Below, piece after piece: positions 5,542 through 64,000 of a stretch of 64,000 nucleotides of DNA (positions within the stretch are counted from its first letter, which is position 1; each line of letters opens with the position of its first letter). The stretch lies in NCBI GenBank assembly GCA_000146465.1, contig CP001952.1; one strand, given 5' to 3'. The notes beneath the pieces are model-generated. The model did not search any database and was not told where the DNA came from. It saw only the letters and a list, made by a program, of their open reading frames with translations. The position numbers and the translations under genes are program-made.

Positions 5542-6867
5542 TCATCCGTCTATAGTTGTGCTCCCCCTACTCAGAAGGTACATGGCAAATGCAGCAGTAA
5601 TAAACAAGGTATTAACATAGAAGTATGACATCAGCTTCGACTTGACGCTTAGATTGTAAGCCTTCGAATAGTGAGTGATTGATATGTGTATAATTGATGA
5701 TACAAATAAATTGAATCCAAGAACAAACTTGTATCCAGATCCTTCGCATACGCTTTGCAGCCCGATATTTGATACTGTTTTGCATAAGGATGAAGACAAC
5801 GAGGCTAGAATATAAAACAGATATGAGTATGGCATAGAATTTGATGCTCCTAAGAGATATGTGAATGCCACTGTGGTTATCGATGTTAAAAATGCTAAGG
5901 AAACACATCTATTTTCTGGTACGAACCTTGATATCTGCAACCCGGCAAAAGAAGAAAGTATCTTTGAGCATCCTTCGATATATCCGTGAATAATGACGGG
6001 CTTGACTGGATTTGAGTGGTAAGATATCGAGTTGTCAAAATTGGAGAATATCTTAATTAATGCATAGGAGACAAGTCGCACAGGCTTTGCCACAAAAAAC
6101 AGCATTTTGTTGACCTTAATGCTGTTTTCCATTCCATTCTTCCTTTTCTCAAGGAATATTCCTGCCGAGTAAAAGGAAAGGCATATGTAAAGAATGCTTG
6201 CAGATGACGAGAGTAAGGACACAAGGACTACGTGGGACTTGTAAGTGTCCTTGATCTTTTTCCATGCATCCATAGGGTTCCACATGTAATCTATGAATTT
6301 CTCTTCTTTTTTACTTGGGGAAGTGGCAGGAAGTAGCAGTACAGTCAACAGAGCAAGAGATAGTCCAAGAAGAGAAATAGATATGTTTACAAAGTGGTTT
6401 CCCCCACACATTATGATATCCTGGCCAATCCATGATGAAATAACACCTACGGATGTTTTGATATTAATTGCCGTTGATAGAATCACTTTTTTGTCTTCTT
6501 TTTCTTCAGCAGTAGAGTTGAGAATCGACTTCATCACAACCCCAAAGGACGTTGTTGCCCCATGAAGCACATAGACAGTTTTTGTCAGAAAGGTATTTTT
6601 GAACGGCATGAACATAAATATCAGGTACACAAGTATCTCGATAAACGTGTCGACAAAGAGGCTCATTTTGTTTCCTAGAAGCTCGATTATCAGAAACGAG
6701 AAGAGAGAAACAACAATGGAGGACATAAAAAAGAGTGGGCTAAAGTTATTATGAAGCTCTCTATTATGGAATCCCTTCTGTTCTACAAGGTATGGAACCA
6801 TGAAAGAAAGAAATGGAGTAAAGGACTTCAAGCCAAAGTATTGATACAGCTTGATTGTCCATGACAT
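5542..6867 (-). CDS. Polytopic membrane transporter, SLC19 reduced-folate-carrier/thiamine-transporter-like
   Basis: 441 aa with about 12 predicted TM segments. The N-terminal block LYQYFGLKSFTPFLSFMVPYLVEQKGFHNRELHNNFSPLFF...LGNKMSLF aligns with the SLC19 block LCxYGFFxNLRPSEPFLTPYLxGPDKNLTxxEVxNEIxPVxTYSYL...LRYKPV. Confidence 0.5.
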   Translation of the reverse strand: MSWTIKLYQYFGLKSFTPFLSFMVPYLVEQKGFHNRELHNNFSPLFFMSSIVVSLFSFLIIELLGNKMSLFVDTFIEILVYLIFMFMPFKNTFLTKTVYVLHGATTSFGVVMKSILNSTAEEKEDKKVILSTAINIKTSVGVISSWIGQDIIMCGGNHFVNISISLLGLSLALLTVLLLPATSPSKKEEKFIDYMWNPMDAWKKIKDTYKSHVVLVSLLSSSASILYICLSFYSAGIFLEKRKNGMENSIKVNKMLFFVAKPVRLVSYALIKIFSNFDNSISYHSNPVKPVIIHGYIEGCSKILSSFAGLQISRFVPENRCVSLAFLTSITTVAFTYLLGASNSMPYSYLFYILASLSSSLCKTVSNIGLQSVCEGSGYKFVLGFNLFVSSIIHISITHYSKAYNLSVKSKLMSYFYVNTLFITAAFAMYLLSRGSTTIDG

Positions 6868-9886: not shown

Positions 9887-10258
9887 ATGGGAAATGATAT
9901 AACCCAAGAAAAGAACGAAGATGCAAATGGAATACAAGAAGAAACAAACACAGTAGAAGGCACGCCAACGAGCCTCTATGGAGAAAGTGACATCATTGAA
10001 GAGGAAAGAAGCATAGTTCGTGTGAAGGTTCAGCAGAAGAAAGGAACAAAGAAGGTAACAATCATTGAAAACATACCAAAAGAGCTTAGGGAAAGTCTTT
10101 TGTCCTCTCTCAAAAAGGAGATGGGTTGTGGAGGAATACTCCTTGACGATAAGTCGTCGATCCAACTCCAGGGAGATAAAACAAATATGGGAATTGCCAC
10201 CTATTTAAAAAGATATATTAAAGGTTGCAAGGTCGAATTGAATGGCCGGATCAGATGA
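9887..10258 (+). CDS. SUI1: Translation initiation factor eIF1 (SUI1 domain)
   Basis: VTIIENIPKELRESLLSSLKKEMGCGGILLDDKSSIQLQGDKTNMGIATYL matches the SUI1 fold core (..TxVxGI...xxKKLxKxFKKxFACNGTV......IQLQGDQR). Confidence 0.75.
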   Translation: MGNDITQEKNEDANGIQEETNTVEGTPTSLYGESDIIEEERSIVRVKVQQKKGTKKVTIIENIPKELRESLLSSLKKEMGCGGILLDDKSSIQLQGDKTNMGIATYLKRYIKGCKVELNGRIR

Positions 10259-10334
10259 TGCAAGAGGAATTCAACTTCCTCCAGAGAAAAGGAGACGATC
10301 GAATTAAACGGAAAAATATTATTCTTTTAATGGG

Positions 10335-10931
10335 TTAGTTTGTGAAGTCTAAGGGTTCAAAAAGAATCCTATCTGGGGCTCGGAAAACTCGAGATGTTTT
10401 GTGCTTGAAAAGCTCGTTGAGAACATCAAAGTCATACCTTTTCCCTATCCTCTTCTTATTTTTGTTTTTAACTTCAAAGTCGTGTAGCTTGTGTTTTGAA
10501 TTGCACATTTCGTCCTTTGTTAGAATGTCTTTCTGCGACCTGTGCTCATGCAAGTACATGCAATCGCTGTTTTGGCACAATGCATTTCTCAGATAGAATG
10601 TACAATACTTTGTCGTTCCATAGGTACATTTTAGAACCTTCCCATCCAAAAGGCTTTCATCAACCTCCTGTATGCAGATCTTTGCCTCTTCGTCCGTGCT
10701 GTATGTAATATAAGCACTTGCTGTCGACTCCAGAGATGATGTTCTTTTATTGACTACTATCTTCCTTATCGCCCCAAATTGCCCAAAAAACTCGTGCCTA
10801 CTCAGTACACCTTCGTCAGCATACTTCTGCGGTATACATATTATGTAAACAAGATTCTTCTGCACCACTCTTACATTCGAGAAGTTTCCCCCCGGCTGCC
10901 CAGAGGCTATCAACATCGGTTCTTTAGGCAT
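10335..10931 (-). CDS. CCR4-NOT subunit NOT4/Mot2-like: RRM plus C3H zinc finger, lacking the N-terminal RING
   Basis: LVYIICIPQKYADEGVLSRHEFFGQFGAIRKIVVNKRTS...ASAYITYSTDEEAKICIQEVDESLLDGKVLKCTYGTTKYCTFYLRNALCQNSDCMYLHE aligns closely with the NOT4 RRM and C3H block (LVYVVGLSPRLADEEVLKRPEYFGKFGKI......GTTKYCSYFLKNMQCPKPDCMYLHE). The ORF begins just upstream of the RRM, and the 243-bp region upstream holds no RING-coding sequence. Confidence 0.6.
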   Translation of the reverse strand: MPKEPMLIASGQPGGNFSNVRVVQKNLVYIICIPQKYADEGVLSRHEFFGQFGAIRKIVVNKRTSSLESTASAYITYSTDEEAKICIQEVDESLLDGKVLKCTYGTTKYCTFYLRNALCQNSDCMYLHEHRSQKDILTKDEMCNSKHKLHDFEVKNKNKKRIGKRYDFDVLNELFKHKTSRVFRAPDRILFEPLDFTN

Positions 10932-11174
10932 CTTTGGGGATTGTCTGCAAAATTTAATATTTATTCGCGGTCTTAATAGACCTAAAGAAACCTATTAGAA
11001 GCCGAGTTTTCCTCCAACCTTCGGGCTTCTAGTTTACTCTAATAATTGCAAAAAAAGATCCTAAGGGTGTACCAATAATCAGCAGTCCCGTCTAATTCCC
11101 AAACACAGAACGGTGTTTTAAACAAGGCAACCTTTTCTAAAATTAAACACAGACCAAAAATTTGTCATATTGCT

Positions 11175-11867
11175 TTAATTCAAAAACATTCCCGCATCCA
11201 TGTTGTATACAACCTTTCCTGCCTCGAGAATCCATATCTCAACGTTCTCTTTGGTCAAAGCATCGTCTTCCGGGTGTGCATTCTTCAGAGCCATAATCCC
11301 AACCCTTACGAGTTCCTCAACATTCATCTTCTCGTACTCCGAGCAGTAGGCCTCCAATACAGTCCTGGACGATTGTGCTCTGCTACCTATGCTCATTCCA
11401 GAAACCTCCTTGGCATACCCCTTTGGGTTGAATTCAACGAGCCTTATTCCTTCATATTCCGCCATGTAAAGCCCCGAGACCCCATAAAGCCTTCTCCCAT
11501 CAACTATCGTTCTTTCAAAAGTATCTCTTAGCAGATCCTCAAAAACATCTAAAAAATGAATAGGTCTCCCTTTGATGACCTCTTCTTGGACGCTTTTGTC
11601 AATCAAGTAATCCACAATCTGTTGCCCATCATTGGTAATGCCAGAAAACGTAAACAGAGACCTTCGGTCAATTGGAAACACCTTTTTCTGGGTATCTGCA
11701 AGCTTCGATCTCTTTTCGTTGTGGGCAATCAATACCCCGGCTCCCTTGTTCCGAAGCCCAACAACTGTGTTTCCAAGCTCTGTTGTCTGTTGGATGAAGT
11801 CAAGCTGCTTCACATATCCCTCAGGATTGAATATCTTGAACATGTTATATCTTGCCTGAGATCCCAT
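11175..11867 (-). CDS. 20S proteasome alpha-type subunit (divergent)
   Basis: 230 aa. The N-terminal [21 protein letters not shown] is a degenerate YDxxxxxFSPEGRLxQVEYA proteasome alpha signature. Length and the G-rich loop GxxGxGVLIA fit. The C-rich motif ACCCCAGTTGAG lies just 5' of the ATG. Confidence 0.6.
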
Positions 11868-11930
11868 CTCAACTGGGGTCAGTCCTTAAAAACATTAAAC
11901 ATCATTGCATTTATTTGGAAATCTTGCTCT

Positions 11931-12389
11931 CTAGGATATGATAAATCTCACATGCTCTTGCAATATGGGGATGTCCATGTCTTCAATAAACTTCCCTAGG
12001 GACTCGGAATATAGTCGAATCACATCATCCATAGGGCTTCTTATGCTTCTTTCCATTGCCGATTCGTTAAGATCCCGGAGTTCCTTGAAGATCCTCTCCA
12101 CAAAATTGAACATTCGGAAGGCCTCGTTGAAGTAGAGGGAATCTGCCGGTGCCGCCTTCAGAATCTCTTGAAAATATCCTTTAATTCTTTCCTCTAGATC
12201 CTCAACAGTCTCCATCCGAGGCGCCTCCTCAAGTCTTTCAAATATCCCATTTCCCGTCCTGCTTGTAAACAGTTTAAATGTGTCCTCCCGGACAATGAGG
12301 TCCATAACCCTATAAAGCATCATTCTAGGGGCTAAAACCAAGCTCAAAATACCAATATACATTACAAGTTTATTTAAAATGACATACAT
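11931..12389 (-). CDS. Hypothetical small acidic protein. The true start is probably an internal Met, because the ORF-track start overlaps the neighbouring Myb gene by 16 nt.
   Basis: ORF only. No motifs recognised. Confidence 0.3.
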   Translation of the reverse strand: MYVILNKLVMYIGILSLVLAPRMMLYRVMDLIVREDTFKLFTSRTGNGIFERLEEAPRMETVEDLEERIKGYFQEILKAAPADSLYFNEAFRMFNFVERIFKELRDLNESAMERSIRSPMDDVIRLYSESLGKFIEDMDIPILQEHVRFIIS

Positions 12390-12988
12390 ATCCGCAGAAG
12401 GGCTTGGCTGGCAATCTCATCCATCTCATCAAAGTCGTCCTCGTCCAAGGACCCTCCATTAGGGACGTATTCCGGAAGATTCTGGACACTGATGCTTCTC
12501 TTGGTTTTCCGGCCCATGTCCCCTTTCTGAAGCCCAAAGCCATACTCACCTTTCTCCTGCGTTATCCCATGAGCCTTCTGAAATTCATCAATCGAACAGA
12601 ACATACTTCTTCTCCTTACCTTCTCGCTTCTCCTTTGTATCGACGAATTCCAATAATTCTTTATTGCATTATCCGTCCTTCCAGGAAGATACTTGGCTAT
12701 CTCCGACCATCTGTTGCCAAATTTCGAATGAAGTTCAATTATCAGTGCCTCCTCCTCTACAGTAAATGGTTTCTTTGTGATTTGTGGGTTAAGATGGTTA
12801 TGCCATCTCTCTCTACATTGCTTTCCAACTCTACTTCCAAGCCTCTTTGCAATAAACGACCAGTTCTTAGGGGAAAACTCCTTTACCAACTTTAATAGCT
12901 TCTCGTCCTCCTCATGCCTCCATGGACCCTTGACTAACTTGATGTTTGCATCCTTCTGATTCTGTGATAACTGATCCAACGAAGCCAT
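12374..12988 (-). CDS. Myb-type (R2R3 SANT/Myb repeats) DNA-binding protein
   Basis: Two Myb repeats with the regularly spaced tryptophans: KGPWRHEEDEKLLKLVKEFSPKNWSFIAKRLGSRVGKQCRERWHNHLNP, then KKPFTVEEEALIIELHSKFGNRWSEIAKYLPGRTDNAIKNYWNS. Confidence 0.8.
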   Translation of the reverse strand: MASLDQLSQNQKDANIKLVKGPWRHEEDEKLLKLVKEFSPKNWSFIAKRLGSRVGKQCRERWHNHLNPQITKKPFTVEEEALIIELHSKFGNRWSEIAKYLPGRTDNAIKNYWNSSIQRRSEKVRRRSMFCSIDEFQKAHGITQEKGEYGFGLQKGDMGRKTKRSISVQNLPEYVPNGGSLDEDDFDEMDEIASQALLRICMSF

Positions 12989-13471
12989 GAAATGGCACAG
13001 GGATTAAGGTTTATATTCTTTTGTTTACAAAATTAAATTTGGTGATATATTTGACACAATTTTGACTCCAAGATTTAATCATTCCCCAAATTACAAATAA
13101 ACTTATATGAGCCTGAACTTTTCAAGGCAGATGGAATAGATTCCACTCCATCCATTTTCTGTTAATCCCTTCAATTCTCCCCAAGGCTTTTCTTCCTATG
13201 TCTGTCTCTTCAATTCCAAAAAGGAACCATGTAATGAATTAGTACCGGGAGATTCTTTAATAAAAATTACTATTACATGGTATATGGGCGCCAAAGCCCA
13301 GTCTTCCTAAGATTCCCACTTTCCCAAACTAGTAAATTTTAATTGTTGCGGGAAAAGCTACAAGCCTGGCACACTGAAGATTGGAAACTGCATTTATTTT
13401 GGATCTTTCTATAATCAGTTTAGAAGGTATCAACCTTCAAGTACTGAAATAAATAGTACAGTCTTCTTACT

Positions 13472-14599
13472 TTAAATTCTATCTCTATAATACTCATATT
13501 CTCCATTTCTAAAGCACTCCACTACATATGAGACAATCCTTTCGACATCCACTTCCTTGGAATCCAAGGCTCCTATAAACTCAATGAGCTGCTCGCCCTG
13601 AAGCTCCAGTATTTTTTTTGCAAAGAACCTGAGGATGGCTGCAGCAAAGAACATAAAAACAGAGAAATCGAAGAACAGGAAAAAATCCCACATTCTTAGA
13701 GCCAACTTGATATCAAACCTTGTAAATAGCGTCAAATACCAGCCCACGGCATAAACCCCGATATCTATGCTCTGATGTAGTAGATGGCCATACACCTCAG
13801 GTATTAAAGCCCGGAAAATCTCATCCTGCACTCTCTGCACCCGAGGAACCTTGCTCAGCTTCTTGTCAAACAAGGCTTCTAGATTGTTGTTCTTGATGAT
13901 GCTGACAAGCATCTCAAAGGCTTCTTCCTCAGGGAAATACATTAAGAGCAATGCTGCAGCACTGGACATTCCTTGGCAGTATCCAACCTCCGGATTGTAA
14001 TTTGAGTATGCTGTAAGGATATTGAACAATTCGCATTGCCCTCTTCCATATTCTCTGCTGAAGAGACAGTGTCTTCGGAAAGTCCTCTGAACATCCACAT
14101 GGATCTGATGCTCATATCCACTCCTTTTTGATATTAGACTTGAGTAACTGAATCCCGAGGCCTTGGGAGTAAACAGTCCCCATAATCTGTACTTCAGGGA
14201 GAGAGGAATTCCTTGGTATATCAATCTTCTCGCAGCCTCGCTTCTTCGCAGCTTTTCTCCATTATTTTTGCATCTTGCTATGAGATCGTACCATTCGTTT
14301 TTGATGGAGACGGGATTGTCTCTGGCCTGGGAGTTGAAGCTATCTACAACGAATCCATACTCGTTTGTGCAAAAAATCTCTTCGGACATACTATTGGCAT
14401 TGTAGAGATCTCTTATGCATCTTTCGTTCTTCATGTTGTTTTCGAGCCGCATTTTTATAAATAGAGGATCTGAAACATCAAGAAAAGGCTGATTGCCCTC
14501 CAGATAGATGTGTTGTAACTCTTTGAAGTCCCTGCCCCGTGACACATGTGTAGAGTCCGGCCTGAAAATCTTGTCTGCTAACGCCTTGGACTGAAACAA
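13472..14599 (-). CDS. TBC-domain Rab GTPase-activating protein
   Basis: 375 aa. Carries the TBC arginine-finger (IHVDVQRTFRRH) and glutamine-finger (YCQGMSSAAALLLMY) motifs. Confidence 0.75.
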   Translation of the reverse strand: MFQSKALADKIFRPDSTHVSRGRDFKELQHIYLEGNQPFLDVSDPLFIKMRLENNMKNERCIRDLYNANSMSEEIFCTNEYGFVVDSFNSQARDNPVSIKNEWYDLIARCKNNGEKLRRSEAARRLIYQGIPLSLKYRLWGLFTPKASGFSYSSLISKRSGYEHQIHVDVQRTFRRHCLFSREYGRGQCELFNILTAYSNYNPEVGYCQGMSSAAALLLMYFPEEEAFEMLVSIIKNNNLEALFDKKLSKVPRVQRVQDEIFRALIPEVYGHLLHQSIDIGVYAVGWYLTLFTRFDIKLALRMWDFFLFFDFSVFMFFAAAILRFFAKKILELQGEQLIEFIGALDSKEVDVERIVSYVVECFRNGEYEYYRDRI

Positions 14600-14641
14600 T
14601 GCAAGAGATCTGTGTAAATTAAGAAAAACTCAATAGAACAT

Positions 14642-15223
14642 ATGCATCATAAGAGCACAGTCAAAAAGACATTCAAAGTCTTGTTTTTCTTTATCCAGGC
14701 ATTAGTGTTTATTTCAGGGGTTGGAGGGTCGATAGTTGGAACAACAGTCTATCTAACTGCACACGAACTCCTTCAGATACCTAAAAAGGCACTTGTGATT
14801 TCGTACACATTGGGAATTCTAGAAGTGACATCGGGGATTCTTGGATACACGGCATTGGTGTCGAGAAGAAAGATTCGAATGCTTGTCTACATCCTAATCA
14901 CACTTATCCTCATGAATGCCCAGGCCATGGCGGTGGTCAAGAACTCAGCTATCTACGAGAAGTCACATTCATGGGCAGATCAAAGATGGAGTTTATTGAG
15001 TGAAGAACAACGAAACTTTATTCAGATGAAGTTTAGATGCTGCGGGTTTTTTAACCCAGCCGACAGAAATGGATCCAGCTGTGGAGGAGAGTATGGATGT
15101 GCAGAAACGATTGATAAGCTTTCCAAGAGTACGGTAAAGCTTCTGCAAAAAATTCTGATGTTTTTGTTCTTCTTGGAGTCGGTTGGAGTTGGAATTTTGA
15201 GTATGCTAAGACTTAGAAAGTGA
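14642..15223 (+). CDS. Tetraspanin-like four-TM protein with a CCG motif
   Basis: 193 aa with four hydrophobic segments. A large loop between TM3 and TM4 contains FRCCGFFNP...SCGGEYGC, which is the tetraspanin CCG signature plus extra cysteines. Confidence 0.5.
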   Translation: MHHKSTVKKTFKVLFFFIQALVFISGVGGSIVGTTVYLTAHELLQIPKKALVISYTLGILEVTSGILGYTALVSRRKIRMLVYILITLILMNAQAMAVVKNSAIYEKSHSWADQRWSLLSEEQRNFIQMKFRCCGFFNPADRNGSSCGGEYGCAETIDKLSKSTVKLLQKILMFLFFLESVGVGILSMLRLRK

Positions 15224-15331
15224 AACTGGGGGAATTCCGAAATAATAAAAGTAGTTAGCTTTTGGTTTGGTCTGGGCTTAGGAGAGTATAACTAGAAGAA
15301 GGATTGAGATGAAAAGGAGTTGTAGTGCTGC

Positions 15332-16537
15332 TTGGAAGGAACTTATAATTTAAAAATTTGCCCCCTTATAATGCACCAGGAAAATAGAAAGAAACGGATT
15401 CCAGGTATTCACTCATACCTAGCAGTTATAGGAGAGCTTCGGCAAGAGCTTGGGAAGGTTAATGAGTCGATAAACGACCTCCGAGATAAGATATCAGCTA
15501 TTTACAAGCAGGAGAGAGAAAACTCCCCAAAGAATAATTTATACAAGAAGCTAGAAGAGCTGGGTAACGAGATAAAGGCATTGAAGGAGGATAGGTCGAA
15601 AGCATTTAACTCTAAAAACGATGTTGTGGGAGTATATGAGAATGTAAAGAGTGAGATCCAGCCGGAAAAGGGAAAGAAAATGATGAGTGCACAGGAAATC
15701 GATGCGCGCATGAAGGAGATAAACCTCAAGCTGATTTCTTCGAAATGTGATTCCAAAACAGAAAAGATATTTGAGATGGAAATGGAAAATCTTAGGAAAC
15801 AGAAGAAGAATATCGGGATGATGGAGCAGAAGAGCAAGCTTGCTGTAGATATGAAAGCCAAGCTTGATTCGTTGAATGCAGAGATTAAGGATCTGAGCCA
15901 GAAGATAGCAGAGAGGCAGTCTGTTGTAGATGGAATAAAGGCTGAGCTTAAAGAGATAAGCGACCAAGGAAAGCCTAAGAATCCGGCTGTTGAGGGGTAT
16001 GAGAAGAACATTCAGATACTCAAAGCCAAGAGAAGCGATCTTTCGGAGAAGATAAAGGCACAACAGGAGAAGATAAGAGAGAAGGAGGTTGAGTACGATA
16101 AATTCCTTGAAGAGATGGCTATTGCACAGGCACTTGAGAAGCAAAAGGAGGAGATTAAACAGAGAATAAATGCTCTTGAGGAGCAAAAGAACATTCTCTC
16201 TAAAGAGGAGTCGAAGCTTAATCCTTCGAAGTTTGATTCTATAATATTTAGAATGGGGTCTCTTAACCTGTCTGGAGAGAAGATCAGCCTTCCTGTCGAT
16301 CTAGCTCTCTATCTAAGTCAGCATAAGATTCCAATTCCAACATCCCCTAGTCAAGTGGAACCTACTATTGAGACACTTAAGTCTCAGAAGGAAAACTTTG
16401 CAAACCAAGTAGTTGAAAAGAGGAAGGAATTTGAAAGCAAGATCTCTGACCTGGAAAGAAAGATATCCGAAGAGAAGAAAACTTTAATGGAGATGCCTCC
16501 TACTGATATAAAGGTGTTGAAGTTCAAGCGGGATTAA
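15332..16537 (+). CDS. K/E-rich coiled-coil protein of unknown function. A likely alternative start lies at 15371.
   Basis: 401 aa of heptad-rich K/E/L sequence. The internal Met at 15371 is preceded by AAAAATTTGCCCCCTTATA, which combines AAATTT and the CCC motif. The antisense ORFs 15502-16011 and 15551-16186 are low-complexity mirror images. Confidence 0.5.
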   Translation: MEGTYNLKICPLIMHQENRKKRIPGIHSYLAVIGELRQELGKVNESINDLRDKISAIYKQERENSPKNNLYKKLEELGNEIKALKEDRSKAFNSKNDVVGVYENVKSEIQPEKGKKMMSAQEIDARMKEINLKLISSKCDSKTEKIFEMEMENLRKQKKNIGMMEQKSKLAVDMKAKLDSLNAEIKDLSQKIAERQSVVDGIKAELKEISDQGKPKNPAVEGYEKNIQILKAKRSDLSEKIKAQQEKIREKEVEYDKFLEEMAIAQALEKQKEEIKQRINALEEQKNILSKEESKLNPSKFDSIIFRMGSLNLSGEKISLPVDLALYLSQHKIPIPTSPSQVEPTIETLKSQKENFANQVVEKRKEFESKISDLERKISEEKKTLMEMPPTDIKVLKFKRD

Positions 16538-52498: not shown

Positions 52499-55400
52499 AT
52501 GGAAATTAGATTTCGTTTTCGATCCCTAATGCCGGGGTTTAAGGATGGAAATGTTGTATCAATGGAGCTGGAGAACTTTCAAACATTTAGGAAGATATCT
52601 CTTAAGTTCTGTCCGTCTTTTAATTTTATAGCGGGACCCAACGGATCTGGAAAGAGTAGTATAGCGAATGCAATGGTCCTTGCGTTTGGGGGAACACCTC
52701 GGATAATAGGTAGAGGAAAAAGCATAGGAGAGTATGTGAAGTTTGGAGAGAATGAAGCAAGAATAAAAGTGGTTGTATGGATTGAGGGGAGAGAAACCAA
52801 GATTAGTAGACATATATCCAAGGATAATCAAAGCAAATATTTTATTGATGGAAAGGCATGCAGAAAAATGGAGTACGAAGAACTTATAGGAAGACTTAAG
52901 GAGAACATAGGAAATTTATGTCAATTTCTTCCCCAAGAGAAGGTTTCAGAGTTTACAAGGCTTTCCCCAGAAGATCTTTTAGTAGAATTACTGCGGGCAG
53001 TGGGGGAGGAAGAGATTGTGGAGAAATTGGGAAGGTTAGAGGAGTTAGAAACAGGAAGAAACAAGTTGATAGATATGCTTGACTCATGCGTCCGAAAAAA
53101 AGAATGCGTGAAAAGAGCAATAGAAGTGCTAGAAAAAGACGTTGAAAAGGCCAGTGAAAAGAAAAGAAAGGAGGAAAGGATAAGAATGATGTATGAAAAG
53201 CAGGACTGGATTCGCTATAAGTTTTATACGGATGAATATGCCAGCATTAAGAAAGATATAAGTTCATTGAAGAAGCAAGTTGAAGAGAAAAAAGAAGAGA
53301 GTTTGAAGATTGAAAATAAAATAATGGAGCTAAGATCGTCAGAAATTTACAGTGAAAGCGATAGGTTATGCAACATTCTTGGAGAGTACGATGAAAATTT
53401 AGTTCATCTGGTTGAAAGACTTCGAAGTGTTCAGCAGGAAACTGAAATACTGAAGGTAGACGAAGAATCGCTCAAAAACAAAAAGGAGAAAAGAACAGTA
53501 AATGCAGAAAGGCTGGAAAAGGAGATTTTAGGTCTTCAAGATGAAATTTCCAAGGTGGAAGTTCCTCCACAGCCTCCAAAACTGGACGAGGCTAGAATTG
53601 GGGTTCTAGAAGAGAAAATGTCCAACCTAATGAGAATAAGAGGGAAAATCCAGCACGAGTCTTCTGAGCTGAAGAAACTGGTGGATGACCTTAGTCTAAA
53701 AAAGAAGAAGTTCCACGAGATGGATGAAATGAGGCTTCAAATGCTTAGAAGATATCATGATGACACATACAAGGCTGTATGCTGGCTTCGAGAAAACAAA
53801 CATCTATTCAAGGATGAAATAATAGAGCCACCATTTGTTCAACTAAGGATAAAGGATGCTAGATACTCTCTTGAAGTTGAAAACTTTCTAGGGTTCCAGT
53901 CGCTGTCACCGTTTATTTGCAAGTCAGGAAAGGACTTTGAAACCTTTGTTCGAATTATGAAGGATGAAAAGAAGTGGATGATTAATGCCATTGAAGCTAT
54001 CAAGATGAATGAAGGACTTCATAAAGGAGAAGAAAGTGTTCCTAGGGAGACATTGAAAGAGTTAGGCTTTGAAGGAGTGCTAAGTGATTTTATAGAATGT
54101 AGAGAGGAAATTATGAATTACTTGATAGTGGCTGGGCATTTTGATCAGATCCCTGTTTCAAAGGAAAATGTTGATGAGGGCCTAGTATTCAGAAAAACGA
54201 ATGTAAAAAAGATGGCAGCAGGAGGAAGATACATTGAAATCAAGAAGAGTAGATATGGTTCAGAGCATGCCATTATTTACAATCCTCTAAAGCCACGGAA
54301 TTTGTTCTCGGAGAGCCTGTCTCTCCAAGAGCTGGAGACTATTGAAGAAGAATTGTCAAAAAAGAACTCGACAAGACGAGAGAACGAAGAAAAGCTAAGG
54401 GAGATTTTGAAAGATGGGGAAGTCATTGACAAGGAACTTCAGGGACTTTATAAAGAAAGAAGTTGGTACAATTCTCAAATGATGGAAATAAAAAGAAAGG
54501 AGACACAAATTCGGGTCTTAAAGGGATCAATAGACAGAAAAGGGCTTGAGCTAAAAATGCTTTTGGATGCAAAGGGCCTGGACGAGGAAGAGGACCGAAT
54601 AAAGGAGGCTAGAAGAGTGTTAGAAGTTAAATGGAAAAAGGAATGTGATAAGCTTAGCGAATATCTTTCAGAGAAGGAATATTTCGATGTGTTTCGTACT
54701 GCAGCCAAGCTGTTTAGAGAGATTACGAACATTAAGAAGGATATTGAACTTTTCTCGGAATCCAAGAAGACGCTAGAGGAAATAAGTGAAGAATTAGAAA
54801 AGAAAATAATCGAAAAAAAGAAAGAGAACTTTAAACTTAAAAAAGCAATAGGGGAGAAGAAGGAACGGCTCGAAAAGATAGAGAAAACAGAGGAATATGA
54901 TAAAGCTCTGAGCCTACTTCCAAGTACAATGGATGAGCTTGATGAGGAAATAATTAAGGAAAAGGCCCAGCTAAGGTTTTATAATATTGATCATAAAGCT
55001 CTGGGAGAATTTGAGATCAGAGAACAGGATGTAAAAGATCTTGAGGAAAATATCTCCGAGTATTCTAAGGAGTTGGAACGTACTGAAAAAGAAGGGACAA
55101 ATATAAGGAGCATTCTTGTTAGCAGGATTGAGGAAATGGTATCCAGAATAGATGAACAGTTCAAAAATTTATTTAGAAAGGCCGGAGGAGATGGGAAGAT
55201 TGTATTTGTTCACGAAGGACTTGATGCTTGCAAGTGGAGGCTCAACATAATGGTCAAATTCCGTGAAAGTGACGATTTTGAAGTCTTAAACTCCCACAGA
55301 CAGAGTGGGGGTGAAAGGTCGGTTTCCATCATCTTGTTTTTGCTAGCCATTCAGAATTATAGACCTTCCCCATTTCGTCTTGTAGATGAAATAAACCAAG

Positions 55401-55606
55401 GAATGGACAAGGAGAATGAAAAATTAGTCCATGACATTTTGGTTGCACTTAGTAAAGAAGGTAAAGAGCAATTTTTTATGATTACACCAAAAATAGCACC
55501 CAACCTGAGCTATAGTCGAAATATGAAGGTGATTGTGCTTTATTCTTCCCCAGGCTGCGGAGACCAAGAAGACTTTGTAAAATACAGGTTAAAAGTACTT
55601 ACATAG
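52499..55606 (+). CDS. SMC5: SMC5 (Smc5/6 complex ATPase)
   Basis: 1035 aa. N-terminal Walker A FIAGPNGSGKSSIANAMVLAFGG. About 700 aa of coiled coil with a central hinge. C-terminal signature and D-loop QSGGERSVSIILFLLAIQNYRPSPFRLVDEINQGMD. The DEINQGMD block is typical of Smc5. Confidence 0.8.
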   Translation: MEIRFRFRSLMPGFKDGNVVSMELENFQTFRKISLKFCPSFNFIAGPNGSGKSSIANAMVLAFGGTPRIIGRGKSIGEYVKFGENEARIKVVVWIEGRETKISRHISKDNQSKYFIDGKACRKMEYEELIGRLKENIGNLCQFLPQEKVSEFTRLSPEDLLVELLRAVGEEEIVEKLGRLEELETGRNKLIDMLDSCVRKKECVKRAIEVLEKDVEKASEKKRKEERIRMMYEKQDWIRYKFYTDEYASIKKDISSLKKQVEEKKEESLKIENKIMELRSSEIYSESDRLCNILGEYDENLVHLVERLRSVQQETEILKVDEESLKNKKEKRTVNAERLEKEILGLQDEISKVEVPPQPPKLDEARIGVLEEKMSNLMRIRGKIQHESSELKKLVDDLSLKKKKFHEMDEMRLQMLRRYHDDTYKAVCWLRENKHLFKDEIIEPPFVQLRIKDARYSLEVENFLGFQSLSPFICKSGKDFETFVRIMKDEKKWMINAIEAIKMNEGLHKGEESVPRETLKELGFEGVLSDFIECREEIMNYLIVAGHFDQIPVSKENVDEGLVFRKTNVKKMAAGGRYIEIKKSRYGSEHAIIYNPLKPRNLFSESLSLQELETIEEELSKKNSTRRENEEKLREILKDGEVIDKELQGLYKERSWYNSQMMEIKRKETQIRVLKGSIDRKGLELKMLLDAKGLDEEEDRIKEARRVLEVKWKKECDKLSEYLSEKEYFDVFRTAAKLFREITNIKKDIELFSESKKTLEEISEELEKKIIEKKKENFKLKKAIGEKKERLEKIEKTEEYDKALSLLPSTMDELDEEIIKEKAQLRFYNIDHKALGEFEIREQDVKDLEENISEYSKELERTEKEGTNIRSILVSRIEEMVSRIDEQFKNLFRKAGGDGKIVFVHEGLDACKWRLNIMVKFRESDDFEVLNSHRQSGGERSVSIILFLLAIQNYRPSPFRLVDEINQGMDKENEKLVHDILVALSKEGKEQFFMITPKIAPNLSYSRNMKVIVLYSSPGCGDQEDFVKYRLKVLT

Positions 55607-60169: not shown

Positions 60170-60775
60170 ATGTATCCTCCAAACTACCCCTTTCCGAATC
60201 GAACGATGAAAACAAAAATCAAATCTCTTGTAATAGAAAATCTTAAATACAAAGTGTCTAAAGACCAGGTAATAAAAATCCTCAAGAGTGAAAACATATC
60301 TTTAAAAGCATATAATAGCTTCCTTTTCAAGATATTGTTAGAACTTAGGAATCAGTTCGAAGTTATTGGACCTACAAAAAAGTTCAACGTTGGTACTTTC
60401 TTGGATAAAGAATTCCTTCAGGGAGACTTATTGTTAGAAAATAGAAGGAAAAGGGAAGAAGCTCAAAGAAACGACACTTTGTTCGAGAAAGAAAATATCC
60501 CAACAAAATATTATGCCAATACAATGCATCTGTCATATAGATTACTCGGTAAAATGATAACAAAAGACGAGGTTCTAGAACGGTTTAAAGAATGTTCTAC
60601 CATATTGGGGTTGAACAGAGATATTGGAGAAAAATGCGCAGAGCACTTAGAGGAAGGGCTGCAGACGTACATTCTAAGAACCGTGAGTAAGTGCAATGGA
60701 AGAACGACCGTCCCAAATCTTAAAACCAGTTTGGAAAAATATCTACGTTTATTTAACGGATTAGATATGTTTTAG
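60170..60775 (+). CDS. Hypothetical protein (201 aa)
   Basis: Intact ORF. Its 3' end overlaps the convergent exosome-subunit gene by about 23 nt. Confidence 0.35.
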   Translation: MYPPNYPFPNRTMKTKIKSLVIENLKYKVSKDQVIKILKSENISLKAYNSFLFKILLELRNQFEVIGPTKKFNVGTFLDKEFLQGDLLLENRRKREEAQRNDTLFEKENIPTKYYANTMHLSYRLLGKMITKDEVLERFKECSTILGLNRDIGEKCAEHLEEGLQTYILRTVSKCNGRTTVPNLKTSLEKYLRLFNGLDMF

Positions 60776-61451
60776 ATATAATCTCCTGTATAATACTTGA
60801 AAGTGTTTTTTCTTCAAAATTACAAATTCCTTCGCAAAAACAGCCCATCAATATACCTTCATTGTTACTAAATATATGTATTAGTCCACAAGACGCTTCT
60901 TCCTCAATTCTTGTTGGATCCATCACAAAATGGCCATTGTCAAACAAAGCAACTGTTTTCGAGGTTGGGATGCTTATTTTTTGTTTTTCCGTTTCTTTCA
61001 GATTACCTACTATAGGAATATCAAGATTTTCGAGCAAAGCACCAAGACTGATAAAAAATAAATCAAAAATGTTTCCATCATTACTTAGTATGCTGAACTC
61101 TATTCTTATGCCTATTTTATATGGAGCTAGCAAATCCAAAATTATAGAGGAAATGGTATTTGGAATTGCAATTTTAGAAAATTCTATAGACTCAGCAGAG
61201 AATTCGTTTCCATCAAAGTTTTCTTTGAGTATCCCGGAAGCTTCCAGGGTTTCGGCAGTCTCCTTGAACTGTACAGATACTTCTATCTCAGATAGCCCAC
61301 GTCTAATCTTGATGCTTCCATCACTTTGTGCTATGTCTGTATGGACTACGTTTGTCCTTCTTGCTTCTCCATTCTTCCTCAGATCCGCCCGGAGTCCGTT
61401 TGCTATCCCATTTCTCACAAGCGCCAGCTCGTCCAGCCCAAAGGCTTCCAT
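60753..61451 (-). CDS. Exosome complex RNase PH-like subunit (Rrp41/42/45 family)
   Basis: 232 aa. The N-terminal LVRNGIANGLRADLRKNGEARRTNVVHTDIAQSDGSIKIRRGLSEIEVSVQ resembles the RNase PH domain-1 opening of exosome ring subunits. Length fits. Confidence 0.45.
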   Translation of the reverse strand: MEAFGLDELALVRNGIANGLRADLRKNGEARRTNVVHTDIAQSDGSIKIRRGLSEIEVSVQFKETAETLEASGILKENFDGNEFSAESIEFSKIAIPNTISSIILDLLAPYKIGIRIEFSILSNDGNIFDLFFISLGALLENLDIPIVGNLKETEKQKISIPTSKTVALFDNGHFVMDPTRIEEEASCGLIHIFSNNEGILMGCFCEGICNFEEKTLSSIIQEIISKTYLIR

Positions 61452-61868
61452 GGGCTTTCTTGCCAGGGCTTATTTCTTCCCAGACTCCCTCCTACAATCT
61501 AGCTTCTCTTGATTTTCGACTCTGTCTTTGCAAACGACTTGTCTATTCTCTTCCCAACCATCCCTCTGCTCTTGCTCTTCCTTCCACTAATCATCCGAGG
61601 AAGTGTTTTTATAACTGTAATGGCAATCACAAAAACCAGAAGGACAATGGAGAATGTGTGGAGAACTGCAATTACACTACTTCCTTCAACCCCGGGGAAA
61701 AAAGCCATTTTGAAAGGAAGTGTTTTGGATGTATTTAATAGTTTTTGATGTGTCTGGCAGAGGCCTATTGGTCACTTCTGTGCATGGGCGACCACTCATC
61801 CCGCAGAGGTGCCTTCATCCGCCGCCAGGTTGTCTGGGATGTAATCCCTTGGTGCAGAAGCCCTGGAA

Positions 61869-62669
61869 ATGGGACACCTGTGGAAGACAGCCTTGGACTG
61901 GGCAGGGGTGCTTGGACAGAATCTCAGGAAGGAGTTTGATGGCAACGCCAGGCTCAAGGATGCATGCTCGCGGATTGCAAGGGAGTGGAGCGAGTGGAGA
62001 GAAGGGGTGGAGAAGACCGGTGTGTTCTGGCTCGGACAGAGGGCTGGGGAGATATCGGGGAGAGTAATGAGGCTTTCGGATGCCTCGATGGGACTTGCAC
62101 TGGAGGCAGCAGGGATTGGGAGAGTGTGGCGGGGACAGAGGGAGTTCCAGAAGAGACTGAACAGGATGTTCAGGATTCCGCAGTACTACGGAGGGATCCG
62201 GAAGAGTGAGGGGGAAAGCGGCAGAGACAGGAGGGCCGGGGGACTGGTCCAGTTCAGGCCCAGCCTCATGGGAATGGGATGGAGAGTTTACTCTTGGATC
62301 AGGCGGGGATTTGGAGTGGGGTGGAATGACCTGGACATAGAAGAGATCGAGAATGAGCAGCTGAGCAGGATATTTGAAGGGATGGAAGGACAGGGGGAGT
62401 CTGGGCCATGGACGGAGGAGGGGGCGGCAGACATTCACAGCCTGTGGAAGGAGATAGGGGGTTCTGGGATGTCTGTTGTAGACATCAGGAATGTCTCGAC
62501 GGTGGGGAGTATTGGGAGACGGAGGCTTGAGTCTGGATTTGAAGTGGAGATTGCAGGACAGAAGGGGGGGAAATGGACCAGACATGTGTTTGTGATGCAG
62601 GCGGTGTTTGAGCGCGGGGCAGACGGGAGATGGAGTCTCGGCAGACTCAGATGGACAAGGGTAGGATAG
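61869..62669 (+). CDS. ORF of uncertain coding status in the GC-rich, purine-skewed segment. The predicted protein is G/R/E/W-rich and low in complexity.
   Basis: 266 codons. It is divergent from the exosome gene and convergent with eL35 at a 22-nt spacing, which fits the local packing. However, the antisense strand also carries a 256-codon P-rich ORF (61815-62585), so the open frame may be compositional. Confidence 0.25.
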   Translation: MGHLWKTALDWAGVLGQNLRKEFDGNARLKDACSRIAREWSEWREGVEKTGVFWLGQRAGEISGRVMRLSDASMGLALEAAGIGRVWRGQREFQKRLNRMFRIPQYYGGIRKSEGESGRDRRAGGLVQFRPSLMGMGWRVYSWIRRGFGVGWNDLDIEEIENEQLSRIFEGMEGQGESGPWTEEGAADIHSLWKEIGGSGMSVVDIRNVSTVGSIGRRRLESGFEVEIAGQKGGKWTRHVFVMQAVFERGADGRWSLGRLRWTRVG

Positions 62670-62690
62670 GACAAGATGGAAGAATGCAGT

Positions 62691-63059
62691 TTATTCATTA
62701 TAGGCAAATATGACTTTCGGGAATTTACGCTCTTTGGCTCTCTGTCTTGCTGTTTTCCTCCTGAGCTGGTGCTTTGTGAGGGCCTGTCTCTTTGCCCTGT
62801 TGAGCCTGGGCCTGAGGATGTTTGGGAGCTTGTGGACAGGAATCCCCTTGTACTCGTCGACCAGCTTCTCAAGAATCTTCTCGCGGCGGATGGTGAGCAG
62901 ACGAGCCAGATTCTTCCTGGTTGTCTTGATGTCGTCCTCTCCGACATCTCCACTGTTCTTCTTCTGGCGGAGGGCTGCCAGGTCGGCCTTGATCTCCCTG
63001 GCCTTCTCCTCGAGCTGCTCAACACTCAGCTGCCTGAGCTCGGATGCCTCGATCTTCAT
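62691..63059 (-). CDS. RPL35: 60S ribosomal protein eL35 (uL29 family)
   Basis: MKIEASELRQLSVEQLEEKAREIKADLAALRQKK...IKTTRKNLARLLTIRREKILEKL...KYKGIPVHKLPNILRPRLNRAKRQALTKHQLRRKTARQRAKERKFPK is collinear with eL35 (MAKIKAxELRxKSKEELLKQLxDLKxEL..LRVAK...IRVVRKSIARVLTV..). The start is set at the internal MKIEAS Met, which is preceded by GCCCTA. Confidence 0.8.
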   Translation of the reverse strand: MKIEASELRQLSVEQLEEKAREIKADLAALRQKKNSGDVGEDDIKTTRKNLARLLTIRREKILEKLVDEYKGIPVHKLPNILRPRLNRAKRQALTKHQLRRKTARQRAKERKFPKVIFAYNE

Positions 63060-63142
63060 TAGGGCTTCTGGAATGCAAAGATTTGAAGCAAAATCTGCAG
63101 GGGACAAAAACGGACAGGGAGGGCGGCAAGGAACAGGCGTGG

Positions 63143-63355
63143 TCAGAGGGTCGGGGACATGGCGACAAAGAGAATGTTCTCGCCCCTCAGAAACAGGACG
63201 CGGCCTGCAGAGTTCTGGACATCGTGGCTTTGCAGCATCAGGTTGATGTGCTCGTCAAACCCCTCCAGAGTGCCTGTATAGACATCGCCGGTCTTTGTTT
63301 TTATCTCGACCCTCTCGTTTAAGTACATCTTGAGAAAGCAGAACGGATCCAGCAT
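63143..63355 (-). CDS. Sm/LSm-fold protein
   Basis: MLDPFCFLKMYLNERVEIKTKTGDVYTGTLEGFDEHINLMLQSHDVQNSAGRVLFLRGENILFV carries the Sm1 and Sm2 motifs: V.IKTKTG..Y.G.L..FD.HMNLVL in Sm1 and RGENI in Sm2. The 273-codon ORF in the track extends upstream as read-through. The start is set at MLDP, preceded by GCCCTGCACTTCTG. Confidence 0.65.
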   Translation of the reverse strand: MLDPFCFLKMYLNERVEIKTKTGDVYTGTLEGFDEHINLMLQSHDVQNSAGRVLFLRGENILFVAMSPTL

Positions 63356-63448
63356 CAGAAGTGCAGGGCACGGTAAAATTTTCTTATGGACGGCAGAGCA
63401 CACGGGCGGAGCAGAGGCAGGATTTATGGCCGGGGCAGGCAGCCCTTG

Positions 63449-63943
63449 ATGAGATATTTGGAGATGAGCTGCATATCGAAAACAAACAAACTGTTCCAGA
63501 AGCTCCAGGACATCAATCCGCAGCTCAACATCGAGGTGGAGGCATACTCCTGCAAGTCGAGCAGGAAGCAGAGGGGACAGAGGGATGTGGAGAAGCCTCT
63601 CCGGTACCTGCAGTCTGCGCTGGGGCTGCGGTTTCCAGACTACGACTTCCATGGGGAGCCGTGGAGGTCGTTTGAAAGGAAGACGCTGGAGGAGGTGCTT
63701 CGGGAGGTGGCATATTCGATCAGCACAACACACAAGAACAGCGAGGATGTAAAGGAGTTTGTGGGGTTTCTGGAGATGATTCTGGACAGGTCGATCAACA
63801 CGGGGTCGTGCTTGATATTTTCGTACAAGAACCGGATGGGGCCTTTTGAGGACTGCTTCTGGTACTTTTCGTTCCTGCTGTTTAGCAAGAGGCAGAAGAG
63901 AGTGGTGATGCTCAATGCATTTATGAGCAGAAGCGATGTGTAA
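63449..63943 (+). CDS. MAF1: Maf1, RNA polymerase III repressor
   Basis: MRYLEM...IEVEAYSCKSSRK (Maf1 box A, ..RIEAYSCK..), then PDYDFHGEPWRSF (box B, SDYDFS), then the C-terminal GPFEDCFWYFSFLLFSKRQKRVVMLNAF (box C, LWSFNYFFYNKKLKRIV). The start is set at the Met preceded by GCCCTTG. Confidence 0.8.
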   Translation: MRYLEMSCISKTNKLFQKLQDINPQLNIEVEAYSCKSSRKQRGQRDVEKPLRYLQSALGLRFPDYDFHGEPWRSFERKTLEEVLREVAYSISTTHKNSEDVKEFVGFLEMILDRSINTGSCLIFSYKNRMGPFEDCFWYFSFLLFSKRQKRVVMLNAFMSRSDV

Positions 63944-64000
63944 ATACCTGCGGGAGCAGGACATTAAAGTTCTTAATTGAGATTGAGTGTTGTGTGGTTT

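Follow-up and report, generated by a model that had tools for sequence, protein, structure and literature searches.

A conserved, G-skewed gene in a duplicated subtelomeric block of Encephalitozoon intestinalis, with a tentative resemblance to Tim44

Chromosome ends in the microsporidian genus Encephalitozoon carry duplicated blocks of unusual base composition. In E. cuniculi, one such block has been described as EXT6, and its jump in GC (guanine plus cytosine) content and its excess of G have been published (Dia et al. 2016; PMC4704409). A telomere-to-telomere study reported shifts in GC/AT, GT/AC and GA/CT composition together with duplicated ends in all three Encephalitozoon species, the EXT repeats at chromosome ends being at least 96.5% identical (PMC10158259). 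Here we analyse the gene Eint_111970 of Encephalitozoon intestinalis ATCC 50506, which occupies positions 61869–62669 on the plus strand of a 64,000-nucleotide stretch of contig CP001952.1. This whole stretch, hereafter the window, is the right end of chromosome XI. The EXT6 paper does not discuss the product of the orthologous gene (PMC4704409). A second described system bears on the protein: according to one survey, microsporidia are without an orthologue of the mitochondrial import component Tim44 (PMC5455965). A mitosomal precedent exists in Giardia, whose Tim44 (GiTim44) is so divergent that it was overlooked in sequence searches and was then identified biochemically (PMC6200312).

The E. 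intestinalis locus resembles EXT6 (ECU07_1810 and ECU11_2050 in E. cuniculi) in its series of genes, which comprises a gene for a 69-residue protein, Eint_111970 or its orthologue, eL35, LSm and Maf1, followed by Inter-family genes. It differs in that its junction with the chromosome core lies 128 bp inside an RNase_PH coding sequence and not just outside it, and in the sequence of its copies, with a protein identity of 44–45%. Eint_111970 is an annotated, conserved gene, and the compositional domain around it has already been described in two papers; as it stands, the finding is therefore an ordinary one, a hypothetical gene in a published domain. We found no paper that names the locus tags of the Eint_111970 family. 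Our overall reading, to which we assign a probability of about 0.85, is that the segment is a real gene whose composition has been set by a regional subtelomeric bias. The original prediction, made from the sequence of the window, had overlooked the duplicated, GC-rich, G-skewed subtelomeric block, of which Eint_111970 is the first plus-strand gene.

The translation of the plus-strand open reading frame (ORF) at 61869–62669, 266 residues long, matches the NCBI protein Eint_111970, annotated as 'uncharacterized protein', with 100% identity. An exhaustive HMMER search returned nine relatives, of which seven are essentially full-length, and a word-indexed profile search for the family added one more, from Ordospora pajunii. 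The full-length homologues share 27–49% identity with Eint_111970 (E. hellem 49%, E. cuniculi 45%, Ordospora colligata 27%, plus four further assemblies), and the orthologues include ECU07_1810, ECU11_2050, EHEL_111960 and M896_121930. Judged by these comparisons, Eint_111970 goes back far in the Encephalitozoon/Ordospora lineage and is restricted to that clade and a few relatives. Of the three options in the original prediction, a lineage-specific protein gene comes closest, but the protein is not of low complexity: it has a sequence entropy of 3.94 bits and no repeats.

A reading-frame and Ka/Ks comparison with relatives, proposed earlier as a check, bore out the plus frame. In Ordospora, the sense frame runs without a stop for 287 codons, and the remaining five frames contain 10–26 stops each. 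The sense frame is likewise the sole open frame at the orthologous loci of two further relatives, L011 (Logan SRR21023573) and L012 (Logan DRR353006). In the nucleotide alignment of the three Encephalitozoon genes, all 13 gaps are multiples of three, differences are most frequent at the third codon position and least frequent at the second, and the ratio of nonsynonymous to synonymous divergence (dN/dS) is 0.41–0.49, with dS nearly saturated. By this comparative evidence, the plus strand of 61869–62669 is the coding strand.

The segment had been described as strongly purine-skewed, with ORFs of 266 and 256 codons on its two strands. Its coordinates and its purine richness (66.8%) were reproduced. 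The plus-strand ORF consists of 0.246 A, 0.151 C, 0.422 G and 0.181 T (purine 0.668, GC 0.573), and its GC skew, measured in 200-bp windows over 61900–62699, ranges from +0.42 to +0.55. Among the 51 longest ORFs of the window, whose sense strands have a mean purine fraction of 0.562 ± 0.045, Eint_111970 is the maximum. The purine fraction alone is nevertheless not exceptional, because 800-bp windows at 52.7–54.4 kb, in the plus-strand ORF 52499–55606, also reach 0.67–0.68; that of Eint_111970 lies at the top of the normal range and not outside it. What does stand out is the G content, which at 0.42 compares with a window mean of 0.21 ± 0.04 and is not equalled in any other 801-bp stretch when the window is sampled in steps of 50 bases.

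This G content coincides with a step in overall composition. GC rises from about 0.34 to about 0.57 with an onset near 61300 (0.30–0.34 at 60.1–61.2 kb; 0.55–0.59 at 61.8–62.5 kb), and the same step is present in E. hellem and E. cuniculi but not in Ordospora, where the orthologue is AT-rich (GC 0.33, G 0.16, purine 0.55). In Ordospora, L011 and L012, the gene is single-copy where examined and has a GC content equal to that of its flanks. The proteins follow the same division: the residues G, A, R and P (GARP) make up 0.35–0.44 of the Encephalitozoon proteins and 0.14 of the Ordospora protein, in which Ile, Lys, Ser and Asn abound, and the residues F, Y, M, I, N and K (FYMINK) shift in the opposite direction. 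Eint_111970 itself contains 15.8% Gly, 12.4% Arg and 5.3% Trp and has a GARP fraction of 0.35; its richness in G, R, E and W is lost in the Ordospora orthologue.

GC skew at fourfold-degenerate sites was read gene by gene on the plus strand, which is directed toward the telomere. The skew is positive in the plus-strand genes Eint_111970 (+0.48), Maf1 (+0.77) and a gene for a 270-residue protein (+0.68), and equally in the minus-strand genes eL35 (+0.58), LSm (+0.31) and DUF2463 (+0.84). The two minus-strand genes on the core side have values of −0.23 (the adjacent 69-residue protein gene) and −0.10 (the RNase_PH-like gene of the core). Since the G excess at fourfold sites is found in both gene orientations, it is attributable to a strand-specific bias of mutation or repair that acts on the whole region, and neither to selection on the Eint_111970 protein nor to a transcription-coupled process. 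In Eint_111970, this skew runs in the same direction as the purine richness that sense strands usually have, which accounts for its 42% G. E. hellem displays the same fourfold-site skew as E. intestinalis, E. cuniculi a weaker one and Ordospora nothing consistent. The onset of the skew falls between the 69-residue protein gene and Eint_111970. On the minus strand, eL35, LSm and DUF2463 have C-rich silent sites. The predominance of G over C on the telomere-directed strand was tracked at 61869–64000 of the window, at 10001–16313 of locus L003, and in loci L006 and L008.

This regional bias explains the peculiarities of the gene. It drives the protein toward Gly, Arg, Glu and Trp, and it strips the sense strand of codons whose complements are stops, so that the antisense frame opens. 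The strand asymmetry may stem from replication or repair proceeding in one direction toward the telomere; one-directional replication toward the telomere has been proposed for E. cuniculi (PMC4704409). The copies would be kept near-identical by gene conversion, which is probably GC-biased; GC-biased gene conversion, too, has been put forward as a cause in the literature. Two points weigh against this overall reading: replication direction and gene conversion enter it as presumed causes of the skew, and the subtelomeres have been proposed to be heterochromatic (PMC10158259), so that not all three copies need be active. The locus may be useful as a worked example of how an orientation-independent regional mutational bias remodels a conserved protein, with a GARP fraction that goes from 0.14 to 0.35–0.44.

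The extent of the repeat was established by comparison of chromosome ends. The region 61324–64000 of the window matches two further chromosome ends of E. intestinalis (L001 and L002) at 99.85% identity and constitutes the proximal part of a subtelomeric repeat that is the counterpart of E. cuniculi EXT6. The genes upstream of the common block differ between copies, being DUF1686 at one end and an Arf GTPase gene at another. The block is at least 8.5 kb long and reaches into Inter-family genes, which in EXT repeats (InterAE, InterB, InterC, InterD) have a distal position, and it displays the further hallmarks of an EXT repeat, namely near-identity at several ends, a GC step and an excess of G (and of G+A) on the strand running from core to telomere. 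Beyond the end of the window, DUF2463 and DUF3654/DUF1609 genes lie distal to Maf1 in L001–L003.

The same three junctions, with DUF1686, Arf GTPase and RNase_PH, are found for the block in E. hellem and E. cuniculi, and the triplication is most likely older than the split of the three Encephalitozoon species. Within a species the copies are 99.85–99.9% identical, whereas the proteins of different species are only 44–49% identical, which argues for ongoing homogenisation of the copies. In Ordospora, one locus was returned, lying beside kinesin, STE and RNase_PH genes, which is the window's own context. Gene order in Ordospora, L011 and L012 runs RNase_PH, a gene for a 70-residue protein, the Eint_111970 orthologue, eL35 or eL31, and LSm or Maf1. 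Because of the single Ordospora locus and a position internal to its contig in L011, Eint_111970 looks like an ancestral core gene that later came to lie within the chromosome-end duplication of the three Encephalitozoon species. In L011, the orthologue block is internal to a 71-kb contig, with RNase_PH and the 70-residue protein gene on one side and eL31 and Maf1 on the other.

The view that neither ORF encodes a recognisable domain was not upheld for the plus-strand product. Although Pfam returned no match for either the plus or the antisense translation, AlphaFold gives concordant models for the proteins of E. intestinalis and Ordospora, with long helices at the N-terminus, a linker of poor prediction quality and a C-terminal domain predicted with confidence. 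The N-terminal helical region (residues 1–80; 61869–62108, plus strand) contains the conserved motif LF.RNLR.EYE.N..LK, in which N18, L19, E22 and L29 are nearly invariant in the family; in Eint_111970 its helices span residues 2–25, 27–48 and 51–80, with predicted local distance difference test (pLDDT) values of 51–80. The C-terminal domain (residues ~150–266; 62316–62666, plus strand) begins with helices that lead into four long strands; in the E. intestinalis model, most of it has pLDDT values of 85–94. The domain is confidently predicted to adopt an NTF2-like fold, an alpha+beta cone in which helices precede a curved antiparallel sheet. The C-terminal domain of Tim44 has this fold as well, and in the models the E. 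intestinalis protein shares it.

One reading, to which we give slightly less than an even chance, is that the gene encodes an NTF2-like protein specific to the lineage and without relation to Tim44, for instance an NTF2/Mtr2-type adaptor for transport or export, or a scaffold associated with membranes. Any resemblance to Tim44 would then reflect a common fold and chance helical similarity. The NTF2-like superfamily (TraM/VirB8/DotI, the CaMKII hub, ketosteroid-isomerase-like proteins, NTF2 and Mtr2) shows sequence identities of 5–19%, and catalytic or binding residues are not assignable; unlike Eint_111970, its members are without the N-terminal helical extension.

The function that we favour, tentatively and at less than even odds, is that of a Tim44-type scaffold, shortened and very divergent, by which mtHsp70 would be tethered to the mitosome's only Tim17-family channel. 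An independent pipeline has given the E. hellem orthologue the UniRef name 'Tim44-like domain-containing protein', a database label. We compared a profile hidden Markov model (HMM) of the family with the yeast Tim44 sequence (identical to PDB 8e1m_C), with an alignment of 24 fungal Tim44 sequences and with human TIMM44, of which the C-terminal domain was checked against 2cw9 (one residue corrected) and the N-terminal half is unconfirmed. With filters disabled, the family HMM gave yeast Tim44 a score of 12.3 bits, spread over two pieces in collinear order, with family positions 12–150 aligning with residues 51–178 and positions 153–230 with residues 272–351; the N-terminal region aligns weakly with residues 51–78. 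By comparison, the best of 2400 shuffled sequences reached 8.7 bits, the best reversed sequence 0.3 bits, and 122 natural open stretches of the window at most 4.0 bits. Scores of at least 7 bits were obtained for 11 of the 24 Tim44 sequences and for a single one of the 2400 shuffles.

A signal appeared only between corresponding halves of the proteins. In half-against-half comparisons, N-terminal halves scored a mean of 7.7 bits with each other (maximum 13.6) and C-terminal halves 4.2 bits, whereas swapped halves scored about −1; the N-half of the family reached −1.2 bits against the C-halves of Tim44. For the N-half, the local hhalign hit had a P of only 0.045, and the human N-half scored 1–3 bits, a result obtained with the unconfirmed sequence. 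The nearly invariant family residues E22, L29, E183, D205 and R207 align with E61, L68, E319, D345 and R347, which are invariant in fungal Tim44, and the family motif Y-x-x-P-x-I-F aligns with Y296-I-V-P299-E-I-L302 of yeast Tim44. That the N-half, which lies outside the NTF2 fold, scores against the N-half of Tim44 and not its C-half, that conserved residues coincide with those of Tim44, and that the name was given independently all argue against an NTF2-like protein unrelated to Tim44.

Other results weigh against the Tim44 assignment itself. Pfam, PF04280 included, gave no Tim44 match for any of 10 family members even at E ≤ 10, and NCBIfam gave nothing relevant. Alignment by hhalign with yeast Tim44 or the 24-sequence fungal alignment yielded a P of only 0.03–0.05; the global mode was uninformative, a control with reversed columns scoring nearly as high (16.5) as the real alignment (22.7). 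A fungal Tim44 HMM obtained no signal from the Eint_111970 family, and human Tim44 scored 6.9 bits with the family HMM, a value exceeded by 3 of 2000 shuffles. A search of PDB sequences with the family profile produced spurious helical-repeat and cullin matches and no Tim44 chain, and Tim44 is absent from the top 50 Foldseek matches in the PDB. Eint_111970 has 266 residues, compared with 431 in yeast Tim44.

Unlike yeast Tim44 and human TIMM44 (PF04280, IPR007379), Eint_111970 thus falls below every Pfam and NCBIfam threshold, and its hhalign matches are not significant. Because the sequence model that defines Tim44 does not recognise the protein, we do not file it as a member of Tim44. A Tim44 would be expected at the matrix face of the inner mitochondrial or mitosomal membrane, with mtHsp70, Pam16/18 and a Tim17-family channel as its binding partners. 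GiTim44 was identified through co-purification, whereas Eint_111970 is known from its sequence and predicted fold. The Tim44-like assignment is the sole potentially new element of our analysis. With less than an even chance of being right, Eint_111970 and its orthologues may be the 'missing' microsporidian Tim44, presequence-less, shorter by one-third and present in triplicate in a fast-evolving, G-skewed subtelomeric repeat. If this is true, it would supply a concrete, testable protein for a component reported as missing from mitosomal import in microsporidia, and it would overturn the published view that Tim44 was lost in microsporidia (PMC5455965).

Far less probable is a structural DNA element, a triplex, R-loop or G-quadruplex whose composition is selected at the DNA level, as the original prediction had considered. 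The G content of 42%, found on what would be the non-template strand if the gene is transcribed as presumed, is consistent with such an element, as is its position at the boundary of core and subtelomere, where recombination sites map in E. cuniculi (PMC4704409). The segment contains no canonical G-quadruplex motif, however, and its longest homopurine run of 14 nt is shorter than those elsewhere in the window, which reach 25 nt; neither tandem repeats (Tandem Repeats Finder) nor mirror repeats were found in it. The fourfold-site skew, moreover, is not local but spans the whole repeat of 8.5 kb or more, and the Ordospora orthologue is entirely without this composition.

We consider it highly improbable that the 256-codon minus-strand ORF (61815–62585) is the real gene or that neither ORF is translated, as would be the case if the segment were transcribed as a non-coding or antisense unit. 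Long ORFs are indeed carried by both strands in E. intestinalis and E. cuniculi. The codon-aligned antisense frame, however, contains 3 stops in E. hellem, 6 each in L011 and L012, and 17 in Ordospora, and the plus frame is always intact; indels that are all multiples of three, a plus-frame dN/dS below 0.5 and a purine bias whose direction fits plus-strand sense likewise oppose this alternative, and no Rfam family matches the segment in a search at E ≤ 1. TTA, CTA and TCA codons are absent from the sense gene of E. intestinalis and E. cuniculi, whereas the E. hellem gene has 3 of them and the Ordospora gene 17, the same numbers as the stops in the antisense frame. It is because the G-rich sense strand lacks these codons that the antisense ORF is open, and the latter is a compositional artefact and not a gene. 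A spurious ORF of this length shows that genes in skewed regions should be called with care.

Just as improbable is a low-complexity nucleolar protein of the glycine- and arginine-rich (GAR) type or a spore-wall or surface protein, an idea that the Gly, Arg and Trp contents favour and that is contradicted by the absence from the 266-residue sequence of any RGG triplet (read by eye), of repeats and of a signal-peptide-like N-terminal hydrophobic stretch (read from the sequence, with no prediction run), by the predicted folded NTF2-like domain and by a composition that is not conserved, given the GARP fraction of 0.14 in Ordospora.

The 1.2 kb said to be without a recognisable gene are filled by two genes called in public assemblies, Eint_111970 and, upstream of it on the minus strand, the gene for the 69-residue protein (61499–61708). 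The product of the latter has one hydrophobic segment, probably membrane-spanning, as well as a basic tail. The protein aligns well with its conserved counterparts from E. hellem and E. cuniculi, has 70-residue orthologues in L011 and L012, and matches no Pfam family. In Ordospora, the gene was detected by tblastn only (E 2.6e-11; locus L010, ~5680–5850, minus strand); the orthologue is apparently unannotated in Ordospora colligata. In every species examined, the 69–70-residue protein gene is oriented divergently to Eint_111970. The 160-bp region between the two genes (61709–61868) may serve as a promoter.

This gene also accounts for most of what had been called a polypyrimidine tract at 61452–61620. 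The stretch is C+T-rich on the plus strand (68.6%), but it contains no pure pyrimidine run beyond 11 nt, and among 3192 windows of the same length as the stretch, 90 (2.8%) are equally skewed. It is mostly the complement of the coding strand of the 69-residue protein gene: the plus strand is rich in pyrimidines because the purine-rich sense strand of this gene is the minus strand. The remaining 47 bp lie directly upstream of the start codon of the RNase_PH-like gene. Nearby, at 61775–61823 on the minus strand, a match to the Rfam family sR43 (archaeal C/D-box, snoRNA-like) scored 15.3 bits against a gathering threshold of 45 (E 0.73) and was dismissed as almost certainly due to chance.

The RNase_PH-like exosome subunit gene (60753–61451, minus strand) was recognised by weak Pfam matches to RNase_PH and RNase_PH_C, slightly under the gathering thresholds. 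The junction of core and repeat, at 61324, lies 128 bp inside its coding sequence, at the 5′ end, and divides the gene into a core part with a GC content of 0.34 and a common part of 128 bp with 0.52. The other two chromosome ends hold only this 5′ fragment, over which a 56-residue ORF has been called in L001 (9413–9583). In E. hellem and E. cuniculi, the common block begins about 20 bp or more outside the RNase_PH gene.

Downstream of Eint_111970, the repeat contains the genes for ribosomal protein eL35 (62691–63059, minus strand, 122 residues; Pfam Ribosomal_L29, E 2e-11; called in L001–L004), for an LSm/Sm-like protein (63143–63355, minus strand, 70 residues; called with PF01423) and for Maf1 (63449–63943, plus strand, 164 residues; Pfam Maf1, E 6e-16; likewise called). 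With eL35, LSm and Maf1, housekeeping genes thus lie inside a repeat proposed to be heterochromatic (PMC10158259). For these three and Eint_111970, all loci found lie in the repeat, in three near-identical copies per Encephalitozoon species, core copies not having been searched for. The GC peak of 0.54–0.61 is limited to the first 2–3 kb of the repeat, which correspond to the four ancestral core genes, and was seen at ~61800–64000 of the window, 10000–12000 of L003, 6000–8000 of L006 and 6000–9000 of L008; in the distal Inter-family genes, GC is back to 0.39–0.50. One possibility is that the ends of conversion tracts cluster at this proximal edge. In L011 and L012, where RNase_PH, the 70-residue protein gene and the orthologue are followed by eL31 and Maf1, eL31 stands in place of the eL35 and LSm of Encephalitozoon and Ordospora. 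L011 has an additional MRG-domain gene ahead of the orthologue, and the GC content of the locus is ~54% in L011 and ~40% in L012.

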